Both the position numbers and the translations under genes were made by a program. Below the pieces are notes generated by a model. That model was not told the DNA's origin and did not search any database. It saw only the letters and a program-made list of their open reading frames with translations. A DNA stretch of 64,000 nt, taken from Desulfobacterales bacterium. Lineage in GTDB: Bacteria; Desulfobacterota; Desulfobacteria; Desulfobacterales; UBA11574. Position 1 is the first letter of the stretch. Each line of letters opens with the position of its first letter. Shown piece by piece: positions 922 through 52,217 of this stretch. The stretch spans positions 107-64,106 of the forward strand of contig JAQYVT010000006.1 of the NCBI GenBank assembly GCA_030145345.1, in the 5' to 3' direction.

Positions 922-2288
922 AAAAACTATCGAATGTATATCCGGTTCTTTTGGCCGGCGGATCCGGCACACGGCTGTGGCCCGTATCGAGAGAACGCCA
1001 CCCCAAACAGCTTGTTAAATTCATCGGAAAAGACTCACTGGTCCAAAGCACCGTCAAACGGCTGACGTCCTTTCTGGACATGGAAAATATCCGAATTGTC
1101 TGCGGACAAGAACATGTCCACGAGATTGCAAGGCAAATGAAAGAAATCGACCTATCTGCCGATGGAAAAATCATTGCCGAACCCTGCGGCCGAAACACTG
1201 CACCGGCGATTCTATTGGCCATGTTTCATATTCTCAAAAAAGAAGCGGATGCCGTACTGTGCATTTTTCCTGCGGATCATGTCATCCGAGATCGAAACGA
1301 ATTTCAGGAAAAACTGCGGTCCGCTGTAAAGGTTGCAGAAATGGGGCATATTGTGACCTTCGGAATAAAACCCCATTATCCGGAAACAGGCTACGGATAC
1401 ATCGAAGGCGCCGGCGAAGTCGGGGATGGCGCACTTTCCGTAAAAAGATTTGTTGAAAAGCCTGATCTGGAAACCGCCAAGAAATATATAGACGCCGGGA
1501 ATTTCTTTTGGAATAGCGGTATGTTTACCTTTAAAGCATCTGTAATGGCTCAAGAGCTGCGTGTTCACCAGCCCGAGCTTCTAAAAAAAATGACCCAATT
1601 GCCTTTCCAAGGAACTTCACCGTCTCAAAAAGCGTATGCGCAGTTGCCGAATATCTCCATCGATTACGCAGTGATGGAAAAAACAGACAAGACCGCTGTT
1701 TTGCCTTCGGACTTTGGATGGAGCGATATTGGGTCATGGAAGTCTCTTTATGATTTTATTCCAAAAGATACCAGCGGGAATGTTATTGACGGAGACGTGA
1801 TTTCAAAAGAAACCAGAAATTGTTTGATCATGGGGCATGAACGGCTGATCGCCACCAGCGGAATAAAAGACATGGTTGTCGTGGACACGCCGGACGCTGT
1901 TTTTGTTTCTGATATGGAAAACAGCCGGGATGTAAAATTCATTGTAGAAAAGTTGAAGGAAAACCGTCGGACTGAATATCAAACGCATAAAACAGTACAC
2001 CATCCCTGGGGAATCTCGACGACCTTGGAAAAAAATGATGATTTCAGTGTCGTTCAAGTGGAACTGTATCCAGGTTCAAAGCTCGAGATTAAAACCGGTA
2101 CATCGACGGTTGAACATCTGGTGGTCGCCAAAGGCCTGGCTAAAACAACGACCGATCATCAGCGCAGGACCTTAAAAAAAGGTCAGTCTCTGATGCTTTC
2201 GGAAAATCAGAGTATTCTTGTGGAAAACCCGGGGAAGGATTTGCTGGTCATTGTCAAGGTAAAAAGTCATGGATCATCTTCCGATTAG
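918..2288 (+). CDS. manC: mannose-1-phosphate guanylyltransferase / mannose-6-phosphate isomerase
   Basis: Start chosen at ATG 918 (MKKLSNVYPVLLAGGSGTRLWP nucleotidyltransferase motif) rather than the track start at 876. C-terminal cupin domain (HHPWG). The last 6 codons and the stop lie inside repeat element A. Confidence 0.9.
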   Translation: MKKLSNVYPVLLAGGSGTRLWPVSRERHPKQLVKFIGKDSLVQSTVKRLTSFLDMENIRIVCGQEHVHEIARQMKEIDLSADGKIIAEPCGRNTAPAILLAMFHILKKEADAVLCIFPADHVIRDRNEFQEKLRSAVKVAEMGHIVTFGIKPHYPETGYGYIEGAGEVGDGALSVKRFVEKPDLETAKKYIDAGNFFWNSGMFTFKASVMAQELRVHQPELLKKMTQLPFQGTSPSQKAYAQLPNISIDYAVMEKTDKTAVLPSDFGWSDIGSWKSLYDFIPKDTSGNVIDGDVISKETRNCLIMGHERLIATSGIKDMVVVDTPDAVFVSDMENSRDVKFIVEKLKENRRTEYQTHKTVHHPWGISTTLEKNDDFSVVQVELYPGSKLEIKTGTSTVEHLVVAKGLAKTTTDHQRRTLKKGQSLMLSENQSILVENPGKDLLVIVKVKSHGSSSD

Positions 2289-2598
2289 TTGTAGTTAATT
2301 GGGGTAAAATTAGTGGGTCATCTCCAATTGAGCAGGTGTGTTCCCAAAGGGTTCAAGGGGTCAAGGGGTCGAGTGCAAATGCTAAAGAATTACAAAGAGT
2401 TGAAAAAAATGAATCGGGTACGCTAAAAAAAGACATCGCAGAAATAGAAAGAATGTTAAAAGCGCTGATAAAGCTTTTAGAAAAAAAACCCTTGCCACCT
2501 TGATTCATCAAATCCTTGCCCCCTGCCTCCGGCCCACAGGGCCTAAGGCCCGGAGGGAATCCTTGGACCCTTTTCTCCAACTAAATTGGAGAAGAATC
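2271..2598 (+). mobile_element. TIR element with four-helix-bundle gene relic, copy A
   Basis: Left end is GGATCATCTTCCGATTAGTTGTAG; the right end reverse-complemented is GATTCTTCTCCAATTTAGTTGGAG (imperfect ~24-bp TIR). Interior holds a GGGTTCA-type heptamer array (2348-2372), relic ATG-LKNYKELK and ...IAEIERMLKALIKLLEKK* (2379-2503), a GC hairpin (2526-2556) and a terminal hairpin TTCTCCAA-N5-TTGGAGAA (2573-2593). Flanks are AAAGTCAT / AAAATAAT (6/8). Confidence 0.75.
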
Positions 2599-3973: not shown

Positions 3974-4078
3974 GATCATCCCCGATTAGTTGGTGTAATT
4001 AGGGTAAAATAAGTGTGTCATCTCCAATTGAGCAAGACCTATTATATAGGATTCAAGGGTTCAAGGGGTCAAGGGGTC
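3974..4078 (+). mobile_element. truncated copy B of the TIR element (left end plus heptamer array only)
   Basis: GATCATCCCCGATTAGTTGGTGTAATTAGGGTAAAATAAGTGTGTCATCTCCAATTGAGCA matches the left ~62 bp of copies A, C and E. It is followed by GGATTCAAGGGTTCAAGGGGTCAAGGGGTC. No right end is present. Confidence 0.6.
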
Positions 4079-4097
4079 TTCTATAGGATTCAACAAT

Positions 4098-4137
4098 TTT
4101 AGGCAATTTAGGCATTTTAGCTCAATTTAGGCATTTT
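4098..4137. repeat. TTTAGGCA octamer array, left arm of an inverted repeat bracketing rfbA
   Basis: Units read TTTAGGCA-a-TTTAGGCA-t-TTTAGCTCA-a-TTTAGGCA. The reverse complement of 5058-5098 has the same unit order. Confidence 0.7.
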
Positions 4138-4157
4138 ACACAAATGAAAGGGAGAAT

Positions 4158-5051
4158 ATGAAAGGCATAATTTTAGCCGGCGGTTCAGCCACCCGACTCT
4201 ATCCGATCACCCGTGTTGTGAGCAAGCAGCTTTTGCCGGTCTATGACAAACCGATGATCTATTACCCGCTGTCCGTATTGATGCTGGCGGGGATCAGGGA
4301 AATACTCCTTATTTCCACGCCGGAGGATTTACCGTTATTCAAGAAGCTCTTTGGAGACGCTTCTCAACTGGGACTCTCTTTTTCTTATGAAGAACAGCCC
4401 CGACCCGAAGGATTGGCCCAGGCCTTTATAATCGGAAAATCATTTATTGGAAAAGATTCGGTCTGCCTGATTTTAGGGGATAACATATTTTACGGACATA
4501 GCCTTACAAACATTTTAAAGCGGGCAGTTCAACATAGAAAGGGAGGTCTTATTTTCGGATACCTGGTAAAAGACCCCGAACGCTATGGAGTGGTGGAGTT
4601 TGATCAGAATAACAACGTCATTGGAATCGAAGAGAAGCCCAAAAAACCAAAATCGAACTATGCAGTTCCAGGTCTTTATATTTATGACAACAACGTGGTC
4701 GATATTGCCAGAAATTTAAAACCTTCCGCCAGAGGAGAACTTGAGATTACCGATGTTAATCTGGAATATTTGAGAAGGGGGATGCTCAAGGTTGAACTTC
4801 TGGGAAGAGGTTTTGCATGGCTGGACACCGGAACCCAGGAAGCCCTTCAGCAAGCCGCCAGTTACGTCCAGGCCATCCAGGAAAGACAGGGACTTAAAAT
4901 TTCATGTATTGAAGAAATTGCATTCAACCTCGGTTACATCGGCAAAGAAGAACTTGCGAATCTGGCAGCCGACACGATGCAAAACGAATACGGCCGTTAC
5001 CTCATGGAGTTAATCGCCGAGGAGGAAAACAATACACACATAAATACCTGA
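4158..5051 (+). CDS. rfbA: glucose-1-phosphate thymidylyltransferase
   Basis: [18 protein letters not shown] motif, length 297 aa, RBS AAGGGAG at 4148-4154. Confidence 0.92.
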
Positions 5052-5057
5052 AAAGTA

Positions 5058-5098
5058 TAAAGTGCCTAAAGTGAACTAAAGTGCCTAAAATGCCTAAA
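5058..5098. repeat. TGCCTAAA octamer array, right arm of the inverted repeat bracketing rfbA
   Basis: Reverse complement reads TTTAGGCA-t-TTTAGGCA-c-TTTAGTTCA-c-TTTAGGCA. It is followed at 5103-5126 by a direct copy of 4101-4127. Confidence 0.7.
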
Positions 5099-5150
5099 GT
5101 TAAGGCAATTTAAGCTTTTTAGCTCACTTGATATCCGGAGGGATCCATGC

Positions 5151-7070: not shown

Positions 7071-7104
7071 TAACCCTTGAACTTTGAACCCTGAACCTGG
7101 AACC
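7071..7104. repeat. TGAACC-type heptamer array (inverse orientation)
   Basis: TAACCCTTGAACTTTGAACCCTGAACCTGGAACC. Confidence 0.5.
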
Positions 7105-9242: not shown

Positions 9243-9512
9243 AAAAAAAACCCCGGACCGAATTTAATCGATCCGGGGATGTCCCATTTTTATCCTCAAG
9301 ATCCTTCTGGCAAACCTCAGTCCACGGTAGTTGTGCCATCTGTTCAGACAGGTTTTCTGACTTCCCCCCCCTTTTAGCAGCCTTCCCATCCATATTCGAC
9401 AGTGGCGCACAGAGGCCAAAAGGGGTCCCTTTACCCAATGGTGTTGGAAAAGGGTAGAGTTACAGCGGCGGGCCCGTCCCCGATTTTAACGGGGTTCCCT
9501 ATAAAGCTCAAA
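9243..9512 (-). promoter_or_regulatory. cobalamin riboswitch with intrinsic terminator
   Basis: Minus strand reads GGGAACCCCGTTAAAATCGGGGACGGGCCCGCCGCTGTAAC (B12-box core). The expression platform is CCCCGGA-N14-TCCGGGG followed by T8 (9243-9278). Confidence 0.88.
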
Positions 9513-9579
9513 TCGAGCATCTGAACAAAACAAAAAAACATTTAGAACAAATGATCCGGTTACGTCAAGAAAAATTTTT

Positions 9580-9846
9580 GGATCATCTCCCGATTCGTTG
9601 GGGTTGATTCAGGTAAAATAAGTGTATCATTTCCAATTGAGCAAGGGTGATTATAAAGGGTTCAAGGATTCCAGGGTTCGAGGGTTCGAGTGACCCGCCA
9701 CAAAAACAGGCGGATAAAAATGCTAAAAATTTACAAATTATAGCTGAAAAAAAGCATCGCAAAAATCGAAAGAATCTTAAAGGCATGGATTAAGTTATTA
9801 GAAAACAAACCCTTGGATCCTTGAATCCTCTTCTCCAACTTAATCC
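9580..9846 (+). mobile_element. TIR element with four-helix-bundle gene relic, copy C
   Basis: Left end is GGATCATCTCCCGATTCGTTGGGG. Interior holds a heptamer array (9658-9690), hairpin CCGCC-N-GGCGG (9693-9714) and relic ...IAKIERILKAWIKLLENKPLDP* (to 9823). The right end is shortened (TTCTCCAACTTAATCC). Flanks are AAATTTTT / AAATTTAT (7/8). Confidence 0.7.
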
Positions 9847-12982: not shown

Positions 12983-13057
12983 GGAATGATGGCGTGCCGG
13001 AGTCGTGGGGCAAAAGCATGGCGTGATGGAGTATTGGAGTAATGGGCTGAAAAAAAT
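12983..13057. repeat. TGGAGTNN-type repeat, copy 1
   Basis: GGAATGATGGCGTGCCGGAGTCGTGGGGCAAAAGCATGGCGTGATGGAGTATTGGAGTAATGGGCTGAAAAAAAT is about 90% identical to 52071-52145. Confidence 0.7.
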
Positions 13058-16083: not shown

Positions 16084-16123
16084 CAGTTCACAGGGTTCAG
16101 GGTCCGGGTTCAAGCTTCAGAGT
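16084..16123. repeat. GGGTTCA-type heptamer array
   Basis: CAGTTCACAGGGTTCAGGGTCCGGGTTCAAGCTTCAGAGT..., preceded by a TTTTAGGCAA unit. It abuts the stop of the CbiR-like gene. Confidence 0.5.
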
Positions 16124-16915
16124 TCAGGGCCCGTATTTTTCTAAAAAATTTAGTGAAGCTTTTAAATGATCGAATGAAAAGACCTCCAACGATACAACGC
16201 CTTCAAACTGTTTTAACAACTTAATGACGGTTTCTGCATCTTTTTTTGTCAACCGGTCCAACGGCAGATGGTCTTGATGATTGTCGACGCCGTGAAGATG
16301 CAAAATGGGCGTTCTTTTTTTATATTTGTTGAAAACAGTTACCGGGTCGAACCCGTATAACATCAGATGGCCCACGTCGATACAGACGGACAGATTAAAA
16401 TCCATCAAGATTTTTTCCACCCAATCCAGCGGGTAAGACAGGGTTTCAATGGATAACATTTCTCCGTTGATTCCGGCTGAAACCAGTTTATTTATACTGG
16501 TGTCAAGACGGTCCAGCCAGCCTTTGATCTTGTCACCGTCACCGCCGGCTTCGTCGTATGGAAGATGAAGCGTGTAAGTGCTGGGAGAGAGCGTCGCCGT
16601 AAGATCTATGACCTGTTTTACGGTTTCCAAAGCAAATTGCCGAATGGACCGTTCAGGGGCGCCCAGGGAAATATCGATGGGCAGATGAATGTTATAGGTC
16701 AGATCGAATTCATTGGCCAAAGAGAAAAGCTGTTTTACCGCATGAATGGATGGCAGACTGCCGGGGGTGCTTTCAAACAAAATAAGTTCGATTTCATCGA
16801 GATACGGGGCCAGCACTTTAACATTCTGTACATAGCCGTCCGGATAAATGAACGAGGTGGTTCCAATCTTAAAAGAAAATGCACCTTTATAGGATTTTGG
16901 AAGGGTAGGGTGCAT
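16124..16915 (-). CDS. xylose-isomerase-like TIM-barrel protein, possible cobamide-remodelling phosphodiesterase (CbiR-like)
   Basis: 263 aa with His/Asp/Glu-rich motifs typical of the AP-endonuclease-2 / sugar-phosphate-isomerase fold (LHLHGVDNHQDH, CIDVGH). Starts 13 nt downstream of cobS in the same operon. The CbiR assignment rests on context only. Confidence 0.5.
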   Translation of the reverse strand: MHPTLPKSYKGAFSFKIGTTSFIYPDGYVQNVKVLAPYLDEIELILFESTPGSLPSIHAVKQLFSLANEFDLTYNIHLPIDISLGAPERSIRQFALETVKQVIDLTATLSPSTYTLHLPYDEAGGDGDKIKGWLDRLDTSINKLVSAGINGEMLSIETLSYPLDWVEKILMDFNLSVCIDVGHLMLYGFDPVTVFNKYKKRTPILHLHGVDNHQDHLPLDRLTKKDAETVIKLLKQFEGVVSLEVFSFDHLKASLNFLEKYGP

Positions 16916-18191: not shown

Positions 18192-18504
18192 GGTTCTTCT
18201 CCAATAAATCTTAATCCCCTGCTAATAATATCTGTGTTTCCAATTCGCAAACAGAACCCTAAGAGATGTAAAGCCTCCGAATGTAATCCATGGTTGTCTT
18301 TCTTCTTTTGGATTTTTTTTGTTATTCTATATATCTCTAAACAGAGTTCGTATGACTTTTGCCAAACTTTCAGGTTTTTCTAATTCTTAAGCATTTTTAT
18401 CCGCCTGTTTTGTGGCGGGTCACCTGAATCTTTGGAACCTTGATCCCTTGCACCCTTGAGTCATCAAATCCTTACAAAATCATCAAATCTTTTGGAGATG
18501 ATCC
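18192..18504 (-). mobile_element. TIR element with four-helix-bundle gene relic, copy D
   Basis: Plus-strand ends are GGTTCTTCTCCAATAAATC... and ...GGAGATGATCC. The minus strand carries hairpin CCGCC-N-GGCGG and relic MLKN*KNLKVWQKSYELCLEIYRITKK (from 18394). Flanks are GTATATCT / AGATATTT (5/8). Confidence 0.7.
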
Positions 18505-19286
18505 AGATATTTATGGGGTACCGGTGTAATTCGCGGAAAATTCCCCAGAGGACTTTCATCCACCAGCAGTGTGCAGCCGTAAGCCGCCTCTAAGGTCTGG
18601 AACGTGAGAACTTCGTCCGGATGTCCCAGACACATCATCTCTCCCTGGTTAAGGAGAAGCAATCGATCGCAGTACATCGCCGCAAGATTTACATCATGGG
18701 AAACCATTACAACGGTAATCCCTTTCTCCTTTTTGAGCTTTTCCATCAAGTCCATAAGCCGGGTCTGATGGGCAAGGTCGAGGGAAGCGGTGGGCTCATC
18801 CAGAAGGATAATTTCAGGTTCCTGGCAAATGGCTCTGGCAATGAAGACCCGTTGCTGTTCCCCGCCGCTTAACTGGTCCAGTTTCCGGTGGGCCAAATGC
18901 TCGACGCCGGTGAACGTGAGCGCTTGCTCCGCAATTTTTAAATCCTTCTCTTGTTCGACACCCAGCATCCCCAGATAGGGCGATCTCCCCATGAGTACCA
19001 CTTCAATGACGCTAAACGGAAAATCCACCCGCATCATCTGCGGGACAAAGGCCATGGTCTGTGCCAAATCTTTGCGGGTATAGTTTTCGAGGGTTCGATT
19101 CAGTATCTTCAATCGACCGTTTTTCGGTTTAAGAATACCCGCCATCACCTTCATCAATGTCGTTTTGCCGGAACCGTTCGGGCCGATGATAATAAAGAAA
19201 TCACCTTTGGTGACCGAAAAGCTCAGATCCTTTAGGGCCGGAATGTCTCCATAATAATAGTTCAGATTTTTGACGTCTATGGCCAT
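18483..19286 (-). CDS. btuD: ABC transporter ATP-binding protein (BtuD/FecE-type)
   Basis: Walker A GPNGSGKTT, signature LSGGEQQR, Walker B ILLDEP. The last 7 codons and the stop lie inside element D. Confidence 0.85.
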   Translation of the reverse strand: MAIDVKNLNYYYGDIPALKDLSFSVTKGDFFIIIGPNGSGKTTLMKVMAGILKPKNGRLKILNRTLENYTRKDLAQTMAFVPQMMRVDFPFSVIEVVLMGRSPYLGMLGVEQEKDLKIAEQALTFTGVEHLAHRKLDQLSGGEQQRVFIARAICQEPEIILLDEPTASLDLAHQTRLMDLMEKLKKEKGITVVMVSHDVNLAAMYCDRLLLLNQGEMMCLGHPDEVLTFQTLEAAYGCTLLVDESPLGNFPRITPVPHKYLDHLQKI

Positions 19287-19287
19287 A

Positions 19288-20298
19288 TTACCGTCGGGTT
19301 CTTTTCAATAAATAGATAAAGAGCGGTGCACCGATCATTGCGGTAATGACACCGGCGGGCATCTCCCCCTGTTCCGGGAGCGCCCTGGCCAGAACATCGC
19401 AGAAAACAAGATAAGCGCCGCCGCCCAACACACATGCCGGAACCAGCACCCGGTGGTCCGGCCCGAACAGAAGTCTCAGAAGATGGGGGACGACCAATCC
19501 GACAAATCCCACCAGCCCGCAATATGAAACAGTGGCACTGACCATAAACGAGGTGGCCACCAGCAAGGTCACCGTTACCGCCTTTACATTGACCCCCATG
19601 GTCTGGGCCATTTCTTTGCCCATCAGGAGCAGATTCATGGAATTGGAGAACCAAAACACGAGGAAAAAACACGGCAAAAGCATTGCAGCAAGAATTCCGA
19701 CCTGGAGCATGTCGACCATGGAAAGATCCCCCATGAGCCAGAAAATGATATTATGGAGCCGTGCATCCTGGGTCAATGAGAGCAGGAACATGATGACGGC
19801 CCCGCAGAAAGCATTCACCATTACGCCTGAAAGAAGAAGGGCATCTTTTTTCAGAATTGTTTGTCCGGAAGACATGACGAGAATCAATAAAAGTGTACCG
19901 ATACTTCCCGAAAAAGCCGTAAGACTGACCCCTGGAAATTTGGCGAATCCGATCAGGATGCCGATAATGGCACCGATGGCCGAACCCCCGGAAATGCCCA
20001 AAATATAGGGTTCGGCCAGGGGATTTTTCAATAGGGCCTGGAAAACCAACCCGCCCAGGGAAAGGGTCCCGCCCACCAGGGTTGCCAGCAAGATCCGTGG
20101 AAAACGGATTTTCCAGATGATGGTATCCAGCATGGGATCATGGGGTCCGATGCCCAAAAGATTTTGGATAACCGCCTTCATTCCGCTCTGACTGGACCCT
20201 AAAGAAAGGCCGAGGAACATGGCCGTAAGCAACACCAGCATCAGTGAAAAGGAAACAACCCACAGACGTTTTATCAGCACTGGTTTTTCGGTGTTCAC
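19288..20298 (-). CDS. btuC: FecCD/BtuC-family ABC permease
   Basis: 336 aa with about 9-10 TM segments and FecCD-family motifs. Overlaps btuF by 4 nt. Confidence 0.88.
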   Translation of the reverse strand: MNTEKPVLIKRLWVVSFSLMLVLLTAMFLGLSLGSSQSGMKAVIQNLLGIGPHDPMLDTIIWKIRFPRILLATLVGGTLSLGGLVFQALLKNPLAEPYILGISGGSAIGAIIGILIGFAKFPGVSLTAFSGSIGTLLLILVMSSGQTILKKDALLLSGVMVNAFCGAVIMFLLSLTQDARLHNIIFWLMGDLSMVDMLQVGILAAMLLPCFFLVFWFSNSMNLLLMGKEMAQTMGVNVKAVTVTLLVATSFMVSATVSYCGLVGFVGLVVPHLLRLLFGPDHRVLVPACVLGGGAYLVFCDVLARALPEQGEMPAGVITAMIGAPLFIYLLKRTRR

Positions 20299-21224
20299 TC
20301 TGCTTCCTTAAAAAGTTCGGGGTGGATCAATCTCACCAGCAGTTCAAGGCCGTCCACAAGCCGGGGCGTGGGGCGGTCGAAAAAATTGGAATCTTCGAGA
20401 AAAATACGCTGGTTTTGCACCGCGGGCAGATTGGGCCATTTACTCCATTCCGCTTTGACCTGTTCGAATATCGCTGCTCGTGCCATGGAAGTGATAATCA
20501 TCACTTCCGGCGACAGGGCCAGGACCTGTTCGCGACTGAACCGGGGATAGGCGATTGGGCCTTCCGCAAGATTGGTCCCACCGGCAAGAACAATGAGTCC
20601 ATGAATAAATGTATGGGTCCCAACCGATACGATGGGGGAGACACCGATTTGGAAAAAGACCCGGGGACGATAGGTAACGTTTGAAACCAGAGACTTGACC
20701 TTTTGTATCCGGAAATTCATGTTCTTCACCAAAAGGTCTGCCCTTTTTTCGGCATTGATGAGCCCCCCGATTTCAAGCACCGTTTGCAGAATCGTTTCTA
20801 AATTTTTCGGGTTTACGGCATATACGGGTATTTTAAGAGATTCCAGGCGCTGGGCGACAACTATCGGATTTCCGTCCTTGATGGCGATACAAAGATCCGG
20901 TTTTAATGCCACGATTTTCTCCAAATCGAGGTGAACATAAGAACCGACCTTGGGAAGTTTTTCAGCTTCAGGCGGAAAATCGCTGTACCGGGTAACACCG
21001 ATTAAATGACGTTCCTGACCCAGGGCAAAAATAATCTCCGTGATATTCGGCGCCAGGGATACAATCCGTCGGGGTTCATCCGGGACCGTAACGGTTCGTC
21101 CCAGCTGATCCGTCACAGTCCTTGCAAGGGATGGTCTGCCCAACAAGAGACTAACTGATGTCGCTGCCAGTAAAAAGATCCCCATGGATCTGAAATTCAA
21201 CATATGGAAAATTTTAAATGCCAT
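20295..21224 (-). CDS. btuF: periplasmic cobalamin/siderophore-binding protein (BtuF-like)
   Basis: Signal peptide plus class III substrate-binding fold (RIVSLAPNITEIIFALG). The start is uncertain (ATG 21224 or 21203); the track start at 21260 is a TTG inside element E. Confidence 0.8.
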   Translation of the reverse strand: MAFKIFHMLNFRSMGIFLLAATSVSLLLGRPSLARTVTDQLGRTVTVPDEPRRIVSLAPNITEIIFALGQERHLIGVTRYSDFPPEAEKLPKVGSYVHLDLEKIVALKPDLCIAIKDGNPIVVAQRLESLKIPVYAVNPKNLETILQTVLEIGGLINAEKRADLLVKNMNFRIQKVKSLVSNVTYRPRVFFQIGVSPIVSVGTHTFIHGLIVLAGGTNLAEGPIAYPRFSREQVLALSPEVMIITSMARAAIFEQVKAEWSKWPNLPAVQNQRIFLEDSNFFDRPTPRLVDGLELLVRLIHPELFKEAE

Positions 21225-21247
21225 TGGAGCCCATTCTAATAATATTT

Positions 21248-21657
21248 GGTTCTTCTCCAATTTAGTTGGAGAAGAGGGTCCAAGGGGTCAAGGATTTGAT
21301 GACTCAAGGATGCGAGGGTTTGTTTTCTAAATACTTTATCAGCGCCGTGAGGGCCCTTTCAACTTCCTCCGTATCATCCTTGAGAGCATTATTCTTCTGC
21401 TCTTTAGCATTCACTCGATTCCTTGGCCCCTTGAATCCTTTCAAAATATCTTTCTTCCTTTGGGAATTTTGCTGTTTTCTATATATCTCTAAACAGAGTT
21501 AGTATGACTTTTGCCAAACTTTCAACTCTTTGTAATTCTTTAGCCTTTCACTCGACCCCTTGAACCCTTGAACCCTTGAACCCTCTGGGATCACACTGAC
21601 TCAATTGGAGATGCCCCACTTATTTTATCTTAACTACAACGAATCGGGAGACGATCC
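21248..21657 (-). mobile_element. TIR element with four-helix-bundle gene relic, copy E (most complete, perfect TSD)
   Basis: Plus-strand ends are GGTTCTTCTCCAATTTAGTTGGAG... and ...CTACAACGAATCGGGAGACGATCC (17/24 inverted match). It is flanked by identical TAATATTT at 21240-21247 and 21658-21665. Terminal hairpin is at 21253-21273. Confidence 0.85.
21303..21557 (-). pseudogene. decayed four-helix-bundle protein gene (PF05635-like, 23S rRNA IVS protein / DGR Avd family)
   Basis: Minus strand reads (AGG in place of ATG) LKNYKELKVWQKSY*LCLEIY, then after a -1 frameshift KTAKFPKEERYF. A duplicated 5' module follows, then ...EEVERALTALIKYLENKPSHP*. It has lost its start and carries a stop, a frameshift and an internal deletion. 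Confidence 0.7.
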
Positions 21658-21671
21658 TAATATTTTTTCTC

Positions 21672-21945
21672 AAAAAAAAACCGGATCAAAACAGATCGAT
21701 CCGGGGATGTCCCTTTTTTATCCTCAAGATCACCACATGCCCCATATCCTCGGAGGCGGCGCCTTCTGCTCGGGCAGGTCTTCTGACTTCCCCCCTTGGT
21801 CTCTTTCAGCGACCTTCCCATCCCGAAAAAATTGGACAGTGGTGTACGACCATGCTAAAGGGCTCTCCTTGTCGTGTAAAACAAGAAGGGCGGGGTTACA
21901 GCGGCGGGCCCGTCCCCGAATTTCACGGGGTTCCCTATTAATCTC
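21672..21945 (-). promoter_or_regulatory. cobalamin riboswitch with intrinsic terminator
   Basis: Minus strand reads GGGAACCCCGTGAAATTCGGGGACGGGCCCGCCGCTGTAAC. Terminator is CCGGATC-N10-GATCCGG plus T9 (21672-21704). Confidence 0.88.
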
Positions 21946-22271
21946 ATACGAGCACCCGAACAGGATCTCTTCAAGTAATTAAAAAATAACAATAAAGTCA
22001 AGAAAATTTATGTTATCCTCATTTTTTGGGGCCTATTTCTTCCCTTTGCAATACTTCAAAAACAGTGATAAACATCAGGGAAGCCATAATGTCCTTGAAA
22101 CCTCCCATTTAACCATCTATCGCCGTCGCCGTTGGCCAGACAGAAATGTGGTGGTAGCCTAATGGGGAAAAATAATACCCGAATTGATCGCAAACAAACT
22201 GGGAGAACTATTATAAATGTTTTTGTTTTGGCGCATTCAGGATCGGCGGTCGATCAAGGGGTGTAAGTAAA

Positions 22272-52070: not shown

Positions 52071-52185
52071 GGAATGATGGCGTGCTGGAGTGGTGGGGCA
52101 AAAGCATGGAGTGATGGAGTATTGGAGTAAAGGGCTGAAAAAATTGTTTTCCCATTACTCCAACACTCCATTATTCCAATATTCC
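52071..52185. repeat. TGGAGTNN-type repeat, copy 2, forming a long hairpin
   Basis: The left part matches 12983-13057. Arms at 52108-52134 and 52151-52177 are imperfectly complementary. It lies between the convergent parA-like and ycaO genes. Confidence 0.7.
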
Positions 52186-52217
52186 AGCTCAGCCGGTTAA
52201 GATGGCATAGCCGCAGA

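Follow-up and report, generated by a model that had tools for sequence, protein, structure and literature searches.

In a 64,000-nt stretch of DNA from a Desulfobacterales bacterium (GenBank assembly GCA_030145345.1, contig JAQYVT010000006.1, positions 107 to 64,106 of the forward strand), the cobalamin riboswitch of the vitamin B12 operon btuFCD-cobU-cobS is separated from the first gene, btuF, by a 410-bp segment with inverted ends and an 8-bp direct repeat on either side. The whole stretch is called the window below, and positions are counted from its first letter. The locus raises two questions: what the segment is, and whether the operon is still under B12 control. Comparison with relatives supports the insertion of a transposable element, as had been proposed in an earlier note made from the letters alone. 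The segment is very probably a decayed, non-autonomous derivative of ISL3 insertion sequences, that is, a mobile insertion cassette (MIC) eroded to a MITE (a miniature transposable element with inverted repeats), and on balance B12 control would have been retained by read-through.

The operon lies on the minus strand. Its first gene, btuF (20295-21224), encodes the periplasmic B12-binding protein (PF01497, 1.5e-30), and the identities of btuF, btuC, btuD, cobU and cobS are all supported by Pfam. The riboswitch aptamer (21756-21974, minus strand; Rfam RF00174) scores 91.6 bits against a gathering cut-off of 31.5. Its expression platform is an intrinsic terminator (21672-21704, minus strand), CCGGATCGATCTGTTTTGATCCGG plus T9, with a 9-pair stem at 21704-21681 and the T-tract at 21680-21672; it is kept in the relatives. 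The 410-bp element, here copy A (21248-21657), lies 8 nt past the T-tract and ends 23 nt upstream of the btuF start codon. The sense of the gene that it once carried is that of the operon. From 21248 its first letters are GGTTCTTCTCCAATTTAGTTGGAG and its last letters CTACAACGAATCGGGAGACGATCC. The 5' terminal inverted repeat (21634-21657, minus strand; as reverse complement, GGATCGTCTCCCGATTCGTTGTAG) matches the other end in 17 of 24 positions. The 3' terminal inverted repeat (21248-21275, minus strand) includes a hairpin with a perfect 10-bp stem, TCTTCTCCAA-N5-TTGGAGAAGA (21251-21275), followed by ACCAAAUAUUAUU and no U-tract. The 8-mer TAATATTT, which reads AAATATTA on the operon strand, directly abuts the element on the btuF side (21240-21247) and on the riboswitch-terminator side (21658-21665). 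The earlier note had described the ends, their 17/24 match, the duplication, the riboswitch, the terminator and the operon genes correctly; the hairpin that it placed next to btuF is there too, and is longer than was stated. Taken alone, the duplication proves nothing, because this 8-mer is common in AT-rich context: it occurs eight times in the window against 4.1 expected. A single mismatch apart, the 24-nt end of copy A is found again at 2575-2598, where no such match was expected (0). The case rests on the comparative evidence that follows.

Syntenic contigs were retrieved for six of the closest BtuF homologues, which place the window in the Desulfobacterales (closest proteins 87-90% identical). 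Ten of these contigs (L001-L009, L163), with four distinct BtuF sequences 87-88% identical to that of the window, have no element. The empty sites read CCGGTTTTTTTTT-G-N3-AAAATATTA / TTAGAATG...ATGGC and contain the 8-mer once, whereas the window reads AAATATTA / GGATCGTC...(410 bp)...GAAGAACC / AAATATTA / TTAGAATG, an excess of exactly 410 + 8 bp. The distance from the end of the T-tract to the btuF ATG is 29 nt in the empty-site contigs. Both the empty site and a spacing of about 30 nt after excision had been predicted in the earlier note. Its own refuting case, namely that the 410 bp are an ordinary conserved leader and the TAATATTT repeat an AT-rich coincidence, deserves hardly any credence: the 8-mer is indeed not rare in the window and AATATT is palindromic, but ten syntenic contigs lack the segment, and the segment is one of a family of repeats whose members have duplications of their own at numerous further sites. 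Thus the comparison supports the interpretation of copy A as a real transposable-element insertion.

The closest relative (L162, BtuF 90% identical) retains an 85-bp remnant at the same site: the 5' inverted repeat with about 60 nt of adjoining sequence and, from the opposite end, the final three bases. The remnant and copy A have variants of their own in common, e.g. CGATTCGTTG and a short TTAAGAT(A/T)AAAT spacer. Since the remnant is at the same site and has the same derived variants, copy A goes back to a single insertion, made in the ancestor shared by the window lineage and L162 once the empty-site lineages had branched off. About 325 bp of the element were later lost from L162.

Five copies of the family (A-E) were found in the window, all between 2.2 and 21.7 kb. 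Copy B (2270-2598, plus strand, 329 bp) is flanked by ATTATTTT and ATGACTTT, which agree in 6 of 8 positions. Copy C (9579-9844, plus strand) ends 11 bp upstream of a TTGACG hexamer preceding a second cobalamin riboswitch (9330-9539, minus strand). Copy E (3974-4078, plus strand) is partial, with the 5' end and the repeat array only. Copy D (18193-18505, minus strand) occupies the last codons of btuD, between btuD and cobU, and its duplication has decayed. Its target within the btuD 3' end was AAATATAT. The C-terminus of BtuD has changed from ...PHKYIHRE-stop to ...PHKYLDHLQKI-stop, the last four codons being replaced (IHRE-stop to LDHLQKI-stop), and cobU has been pushed about 330 nt from btuD, where the gap in relatives is only 4 nt. 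This copy exists in four lineages at four stages of decay (312, about 330, 113 (L004) and about 30 bp (L163)), the window and L162 being among its carriers, and is absent from L001 and L006-L008, which have empty sites. Copy D is older than copy A.

The riboswitch next to copy C (9539-9330) belongs to a TonB-dependent receptor gene (9200-7191), so that, of the window's three B12 riboswitch loci, two are adjoined by a family copy. All five copies are confined to the first 22 kb, which are rich in B12 and nucleotide-sugar genes, with none in the other 42 kb. Local hopping, regional permissiveness and chance are all candidate explanations of this clustering.

Outside the window, a scan of a genome collection with a degenerate end pattern gave 28 matches, of which roughly two thirds were due to chance and fell in unrelated phyla; true relatives were observed only in metagenome-assembled genomes (MAGs) of Desulfobacterales, Syntrophobacterales and Thermodesulfobacteriota. 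The 21-nt hairpin-end motif is present in at least 120 metagenome contigs. Elements sharing the ends of copy A thus exist both in the window and in many metagenomes, with sizes from 198 to 693 bp. For 26 of them both ends could be defined. Their flanks agree in all eight positions in 8 cases, in seven in 3 and in six in 7 (18/26 at 6/8 or better), compared with 0/78 in offset controls at the same threshold. The perfect duplications all differ (ACAAAAAA, AGATAGAC, ATTATTGA, ATAGCAAA and others), so these are target duplications and not element sequence. The internal rearrangement of copy A is also seen in an element (L137) that lies elsewhere and has a perfect duplication of its own; either this form moved after it had been rearranged, or a rearranged master copy gave rise to both elements. 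No long transposase-bearing members were found when they were sought by duplication among the metagenome hits. A 1588-bp "long element" (L061) with a 7/8 duplication was considered as an autonomous copy and rejected, as it contains ordinary host genes.

One locus seen in four JGI metagenomes (L038-L041) has the same cassette insertion with the duplication ATAAATAA and variants differing from sample to sample: deletions of 32-38 bp by which either one inverted repeat or its partner is lost, and changes in the number of 8-bp repeats. Decay of these copies is under way within populations.

The probable ISL3 partner was found only by inspection of the sequence beside orphan ends. One such end (L159) terminates a 1353-bp insertion sequence encoding a 424-aa protein with the domains PF01610 (DDE_Tnp_ISL3, 6.7e-69), PF13542 and PF14690. 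Its 3' terminal 27 nt are identical to those of copy A (27/27), and 24 of the first 34 nt agree at the 5' end. The transposase has thousands of relatives, the best 120 being 75-100% identical, many of them on contigs of 1.3-1.6 kb, as expected because repeats break assemblies. The ends of two further ISL3 elements (P0259 and P0318) also align with the cassette ends; in P0259 the 5' end is GGATCATCTCCGAATTAGTTGTAGGTAAAAGGGAAATAAAGTG and aligns with the cassette 5' end over about 45 nt. P0318 has ten identical copies in a long-read assembly, with perfect 8-bp duplications in 10/10. The short-read flanks of P0259 were set aside for duplication counts as assembly chimeras, since mismatched flanks recur between contigs.

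This agrees with what has been published on the family. ISL3 examples have GG..TCTTC ends, AT-rich 8-bp duplications and a preference for intergenic sites (PMC9782665, PMC11952509), one of them with the inverted repeat GGGTCTTCGGA and the duplication AAAATAAG (PMC9782665). A 2025 preprint describes the family as replicative and enriched in intergenic regions, perhaps by tropism for AT-rich DNA, and as capable of donating an outward -35 hexamer (PMC11952509). The earlier note had called the insertion a cut-and-paste event. The insertion with its 8-bp target duplication stands, and the mode does not follow from it, since ISL3 elements are described as replicative and the duplication fits both modes.

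The element was once larger and contained a gene. In copy A the pseudogene of a four-helix-bundle protein (PF05635 / TIGR02436) covers 21304-21546 on the minus strand. It came to light only when the copies were translated and peptides stitched from them were scanned: the stitched copy A peptide matches PF05635 (23S_rRNA_IVP) with E = 2.8e-7 and NF008911 with 7e-8, and a family-consensus peptide exceeds the cut-offs of both PF05635 and TIGR02436 "four helix bundle protein". AGG now stands in place of the initial ATG (21546-21544), and there is an in-frame TAA, a frameshift, and a large internal deletion or rearrangement with a second partial block of array plus ATG CTA AAG (21438-21407). On the operon strand the translation runs ..RLKNYKELKVWQKSY-stop-LCLEIYRK.. 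in one frame, ..TAKFPKEERY.. in another, and later ..EEVERALTALIKYLENKPSHP-stop; the C-terminal remnant ends at TGA 21306-21304. The gene in copy A is thus dead.

Just upstream of the former start codon is an array of 8-bp tandem repeats, GGGTTCAA three times followed by GGGGTCGA (21549-21583, minus strand), and intact copies have an array at the same position. Downstream of the former gene the repeats recur as an inverted, degenerate array (21274-21318, minus strand), whose RNA is predicted to pair with the upstream one. An intact counterpart was found in a 567-bp element with a perfect duplication (L084): its 123-aa open reading frame (ORF) matches PF05635 with 6e-40 and PDB 2GSC, the Xanthomonas S23p pentamer, with 4e-24. 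Another element of 693 bp (L014), whose ends are of this type too and whose duplication, ATATTTTA, is perfect, has a different intact PF05635 gene; its protein had no tblastn match among the window copies and represents a different subfamily. The full design is thus as follows: the 5' inverted repeat; a stretch of about 50 nt in which CATCTCCAATTGAG occurs; three to five tandem 8-mers (GGGTTCAA) right before the ATG; the ORF; inverted 8-mers; and the hairpin-containing 3' inverted repeat. No transposase gene was observed inside family elements, where the PF05635 gene or its remnants are the only ORF. A search with the N- and C-terminal remnants returned 471 proteins, nearly all internally deleted versions of 45-102 aa, annotated as "four helix bundle" or "hypothetical", from Desulfobacteraceae and deltaproteobacterial MAGs. 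Hence copy A is not an anonymous MITE; on the evidence of these matches it is a decayed cassette with a PF05635 four-helix-bundle passenger.

The intact cassette is about 570 bp long and has no transposase. An ISL3-family DDE transposase would recognise the shared ends and move it in trans, and its staggered cuts would produce the 8-bp, usually AT-rich, target duplication. Copy A entered AAATATTA, 8 nt past the T-tract, in the ancestor of the window lineage and L162, and its gene has since died.

Copy A has what is expected of a non-autonomous derivative of an insertion sequence: ends matching ISL3, a duplication of the parental length, small size with no transposase, and empty sites in relatives. 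Of the features of an autonomous ISL3 element it has the repeats starting with GG and the AT-rich 8-bp duplication, and it lacks a PF01610 gene; for this reason it is filed as ISL3-derived or ISL3-mobilisable and not as an ISL3 insertion sequence. The cassettes share with ISL3 elements and their derivatives the GG(N)TC(N)TC starts of the repeats, the mostly AT-rich 8-bp duplication, the intergenic location and the multiple copies, and differ in that they have or had a PF05635 passenger between inverted 8-bp tandem-repeat arrays. The term MIC for elements lacking a transposase gene is used here as in ISfinder/ISsaga (PMC3129680).

Other small elements offer looser parallels. Correia/NEMIS, ERIC, RUP and BOX elements are likewise small, have inverted repeats, lie in untranslated regions of operons and are transcribed as hairpin RNA. 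However, their ends, duplications and parent transposases are different (the Correia duplication is TA), and none of them derives from a PF05635 gene cassette. By analogy with these elements, copy A could affect mRNA processing, stability or promoters. Co-transcription of bacterial MITEs with neighbouring genes has been reviewed in general (PMC2229807). The passenger is also homologous to Avd (PF22296 / NF033474), which serves diversity-generating retroelements as an accessory protein: the intact ORF of L084 matches bAvd with 2.8e-8, below the cut-off of that model, and a remnant matches NF033474 weakly. However, the best family is PF05635 and not Avd, and there is no reverse transcriptase, template repeat or variable repeat near the cassette.

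The second question is what became of B12 control. The earlier note had made this depend on whether the element terminates read-through transcripts or carries an outward promoter. Selection on the locus appears to have continued. Between the window and L162, both of which bear the insertion, the ratios of nonsynonymous to synonymous substitutions are 0.21 for btuF, 0.10 for btuC and 0.16 for btuD, with 0.24-0.32 synonymous substitutions per site. The 344-nt region of promoter, riboswitch and terminator has only 13 window-specific substitutions (3.8%), where the synonymous rate would lead one to expect about 15%; most of this branch is younger than the insertion. The aptamer scores 91.6 bits in the window, compared with 93.3 and 91.8 in uninserted relatives. 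A terminator scan of the operon strand of the element found only a weak hairpin with no T-run. Because the riboswitch, the terminator and btuFCD are under purifying selection and the element has no convincing terminator, we favour read-through with retained control: the terminator, upstream of the element, would still be the point of the B12 decision, and the read-through transcripts would cross the 410 nt, including the long stem, and still express btuFCD-cobUS. It is somewhat probable that B12 control has been retained in this way.

One relative counts against this. About 200 nt of the aptamer are gone from L162, the other carrier of the insertion, as would fit riboswitch control that became dispensable after the insertion. 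Its leader (L162:1-330, syntenic, like L004:3360-4000, to window positions 21225-22271) keeps the promoter, the first approximately 35 leader nt and the terminator; no cobalamin riboswitch was detectable upstream of btuF, and btuFCD is intact. A similar loss is seen in L004/L005 (L004:3360-4000), where the promoter and the terminator are kept with about 150 nt of unrelated sequence between them, no cobalamin riboswitch is detectable, btuFCD is intact, and the neighbouring GMC oxidoreductase gene is missing as well. Here the aptamer was lost in a lineage, L004, that never had insertion A.

One possibility is that the riboswitch is bypassed, an outward promoter in the element or at its junction making btuFCD-cobUS constitutive and the riboswitch largely irrelevant. 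There is a promoter-like site directed to btuF inside the element (21333-21362, minus strand), by consensus match TTGAAA-18-TAAAGT with TG before the second hexamer. A possible hybrid promoter, read by eye, lies at the 3' junction, with TTGGAG, a spacer of 16 nt and TAGAAT 8 nt before the ATG. Donation of an outward -35 hexamer has been reported for ISL3 elements (PMC11952509), and L162 combines loss of the aptamer with an intact btuFCD under purifying selection. However, promoter-like sites are no commoner in the region than in shuffled sequence (2 vs 1.8), and the candidate -35 at the junction matches in only 3 of 6 positions. If the riboswitch were irrelevant, the window aptamer with its 91.6 bits, its 13 lineage-specific substitutions in 344 nt and its intact terminator would be unexpected. 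A constitutive bypass is thus rather doubtful. An argument from orientation was also rejected: in 51 of 70 family copies the 3' end lies just upstream of the start of a co-directional gene (51:19, p = 2e-4), and between co-directional genes, the controlled comparison, the bias falls to 10:6, which is not significant. We read the orientation counts as a preference for positions near gene starts.

Another possibility is that the transcript is processed like an intervening sequence of rRNA, with the array stem cut by RNase III, the riboswitch severed from the btuF mRNA, and its stability or translation altered. A long-range stem between the arrays is indeed predicted for the copy A RNA (z = -3.3) and for the intact L084 element (z = -4.5). 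The layout of array, PF05635 ORF and inverted array is that of a genuine intervening sequence at helix 45 of an Azospirillum 23S rRNA gene, and it resembles the Coxiella element excised by RNase III (PMC4990558). However, the arms of an element barely pair better with each other than with swapped arms (-48.9 vs -46.1 kcal/mol, median rank 0.34). As own and swapped arms are nearly equal, covariation provides no evidence for selection on an RNA stem over symmetry at the DNA level, and this difference is too weak for a claim of RNA-level constraint on the long stem. Processing of this kind is unlikely; it could co-occur with either retained control or promoter bypass.

The cassette design is not restricted to the Desulfobacterota. 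A tblastn search with the intact ORF against plasmids gave 37 records, mostly cyanobacterial. A 542-bp unit in Geminocystis has the ends GGCTCTTCTACAGT and GGTTCTTCTACTTT, a perfect AATAAAAA duplication and inverted arrays of the GGGAAAA/GGGAAGA type around the gene. In Nostoc, Calothrix and Pseudanabaena the gene is located between operon genes (cas6 and cas4; two ribonucleotide-reductase subunit genes; an AAA ATPase gene and parB), and at the Nostoc operon loci it lies inside inverted heptamer arrays with no recognisable ISL3 ends. The Nostoc PCC 7120 plasmid pCC7120gamma (NC_003267.1, 13,0xx-15,5xx) contains a 2566-bp element with perfect 24-bp inverted repeats GGTTCTTGGCAACTTTTGGTGATC and inverted GGCAGAG arrays, in which an ISL3 transposase gene and the four-helix-bundle gene occur together; plasmid3 of Nostoc HK-01 has the same arrangement. 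These elements resemble the cassette in their GG(N)TCTTG... repeats, in the inverted arrays inside both ends and in the PF05635 gene at the 3' side. They are from another phylum, have heptamers instead of octamers, are 2.3-2.6 kb long and are autonomous, whereas in the Desulfobacterota those ISL3 elements whose ends match, of about 1.35 kb, have neither arrays nor a PF05635 gene. In its sequence organisation the cassette looks like a Nostoc ISL3 element minus the transposase gene.

On Pseudanabaena galeata plasmid pPg_01 (L185, 46268-46627) the four-helix-bundle gene, bordered by about 15 tandem AAAAGCT heptamers, is situated between cas6 and cas4 of a CRISPR-Cas locus. Earlier reports that describe the four-helix-bundle domain as CRISPR-associated may reflect such cassette insertions.

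In Azospirillum lipoferum 4B (plasmid AZO_p2, L195:3436-3910) a 23S rRNA gene is interrupted at the helix-45 position by a true intervening sequence with a PF05635 gene. It consists of a heptamer array, the ORF and an inverted array (36-nt arms, 86% complementary), with no ISL3 ends. Its heptamers, GAGGACG/GATGACA/GAGGACA ending CAGAAAGG, are similar to GACAGAT of Coxiella and to GGCAGAG/GGCAGAA of the Nostoc ISL3 elements. The Coxiella intervening sequence has variable numbers of GACAGAT heptamers before the S23p start codon, a decaying ORF and excision by RNase III, and its origin was called unclear by its authors (PMC4990558).

Thus the ORF-bearing 23S rRNA intervening sequences of Leptospira, Coxiella burnetii and Azospirillum share with the cassette the S23p / PF05635 family, an ORF often decaying by deletion, variable numbers of 7-8-nt repeats immediately ahead of the start codon, their inverted counterpart downstream and a long stem predicted to enclose the ORF. 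The layout of PF05635 ORF, repeats and stem is present in L084 with an intact gene and in copy A with a pseudogene. However, the element here is located in an mRNA leader and family members at intergenic sites, not in an rRNA gene, and no rRNA genes were found in the window with Rfam. Unlike the Azospirillum sequence, it has ISL3-type ends and an 8-bp duplication.

These cassettes raise the alternative that the four-helix-bundle gene and its arrays move by means of their own protein or another non-ISL3 mechanism, the ISL3-like ends being incidental. Cassettes lacking such ends do lie inside cyanobacterial operons and a 23S rRNA gene, and a mobility function of the ORF was proposed by Ralph and McClelland (1993), as cited in PMC4990558. 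However, in the present family the boundaries defined by duplications coincide exactly with ISL3-type ends, perfect duplications at unique sites are also found for copies whose gene is dead or deleted, the duplication has the length of that of the cognate ISL3 elements, and the four-helix-bundle protein has no known transposase chemistry. We therefore consider self-mobility very unlikely.

Some observations nevertheless weigh against mobilisation by ISL3. A tblastn search with the ISL3 transposase found none in the 64-kb window, nor in the syntenic loci. As the ISL3 elements with matching ends are from other metagenomes, this genome is assumed to have a cognate enzyme, and transposition of the cassette in trans is inferred. 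The two ends of copy A match each other in only 17 of 24 positions. As gene-plus-array cassettes without ISL3 ends exist in Nostoc operons and in the Azospirillum 23S rRNA gene, ISL3 may not be the sole means of spread. With these points taken into account, a decayed ISL3-derived cassette is still the reading that we hold to be very probable.

A wider link can be put forward as a hypothesis. A DNA-level route for the spread of intervening sequences has been suspected since 1990-93 and never identified. The ORF-plus-array unit of the 23S rRNA intervening sequences might be ISL3 cargo, possibly an accessory gene, with ISL3 as the route of spread; the PF05635 protein would act in or on ISL3 transposition, in the way that Avd helps a reverse transcriptase, and RNase III would process the unit in the present mRNA leader and separate the riboswitch from the operon. 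This is possible, though we would not expect it to hold in full. In the literature outside subscription journals and ISfinder entries, no link of ISL3 with PF05635/S23p or with repeat arrays was found, and no description of an ISL3-derived cassette family with PF05635 cargo was found in the searchable literature.

Repeat arrays of other kinds are also present in the window. A nucleotidyl-transferase gene (4158-5051, PF00483) lies between inverted arrays of 9-10-nt tandem repeats (4096-4138 and 5058-5100), of the AATTTAGGCA type upstream, starting right after the truncated copy E, and of the TGCCTAAAG type downstream. The layout echoes the cassette design, but the gene inside is of host type. 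Intergenic tandem arrays of 7-8-mers were observed at 7072-7104, 16091-16129, 13018-13045 and 52106-52186 (CCTTGAA, CAGGGTT, ATGGAGTA, CCAATACT). They were not matched in BLAST with the element family, and may be solo array remnants or arrays of other types.

As a non-autonomous ISL3 derivative, the insertion itself is of a known kind; what goes beyond the routine are the leader alleles and the link between ISL3 transposons and the ORF-bearing module of intervening sequences, which for those in rRNA is a hypothesis. The locus is a natural experiment, in which a foreign, highly structured segment of 410 nt came to separate a transcription-terminating riboswitch from the first gene under its control. 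The insertion has been tolerated while the window and L162, which later lost its aptamer, diverged by about 0.24-0.32 synonymous substitutions per site. The natural leader alleles (empty, full, remnant, and remnant without aptamer) make the tolerance of a riboswitch for its spacer testable. For annotation, the hundreds of Desulfobacterota MAG proteins of 45-100 aa called "four helix bundle" or "hypothetical" are fragments of decaying cassettes. The PF05635 family has been solved structurally and has been functionally blank for decades. The present data join three things for which we found no such link in the searchable literature: a widespread family of small cassettes of sulfate reducers, ISL3 transposases and the PF05635 protein. 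From this link follows a hypothesis, open to test, of how intervening sequences arose and move and of what PF05635 does.

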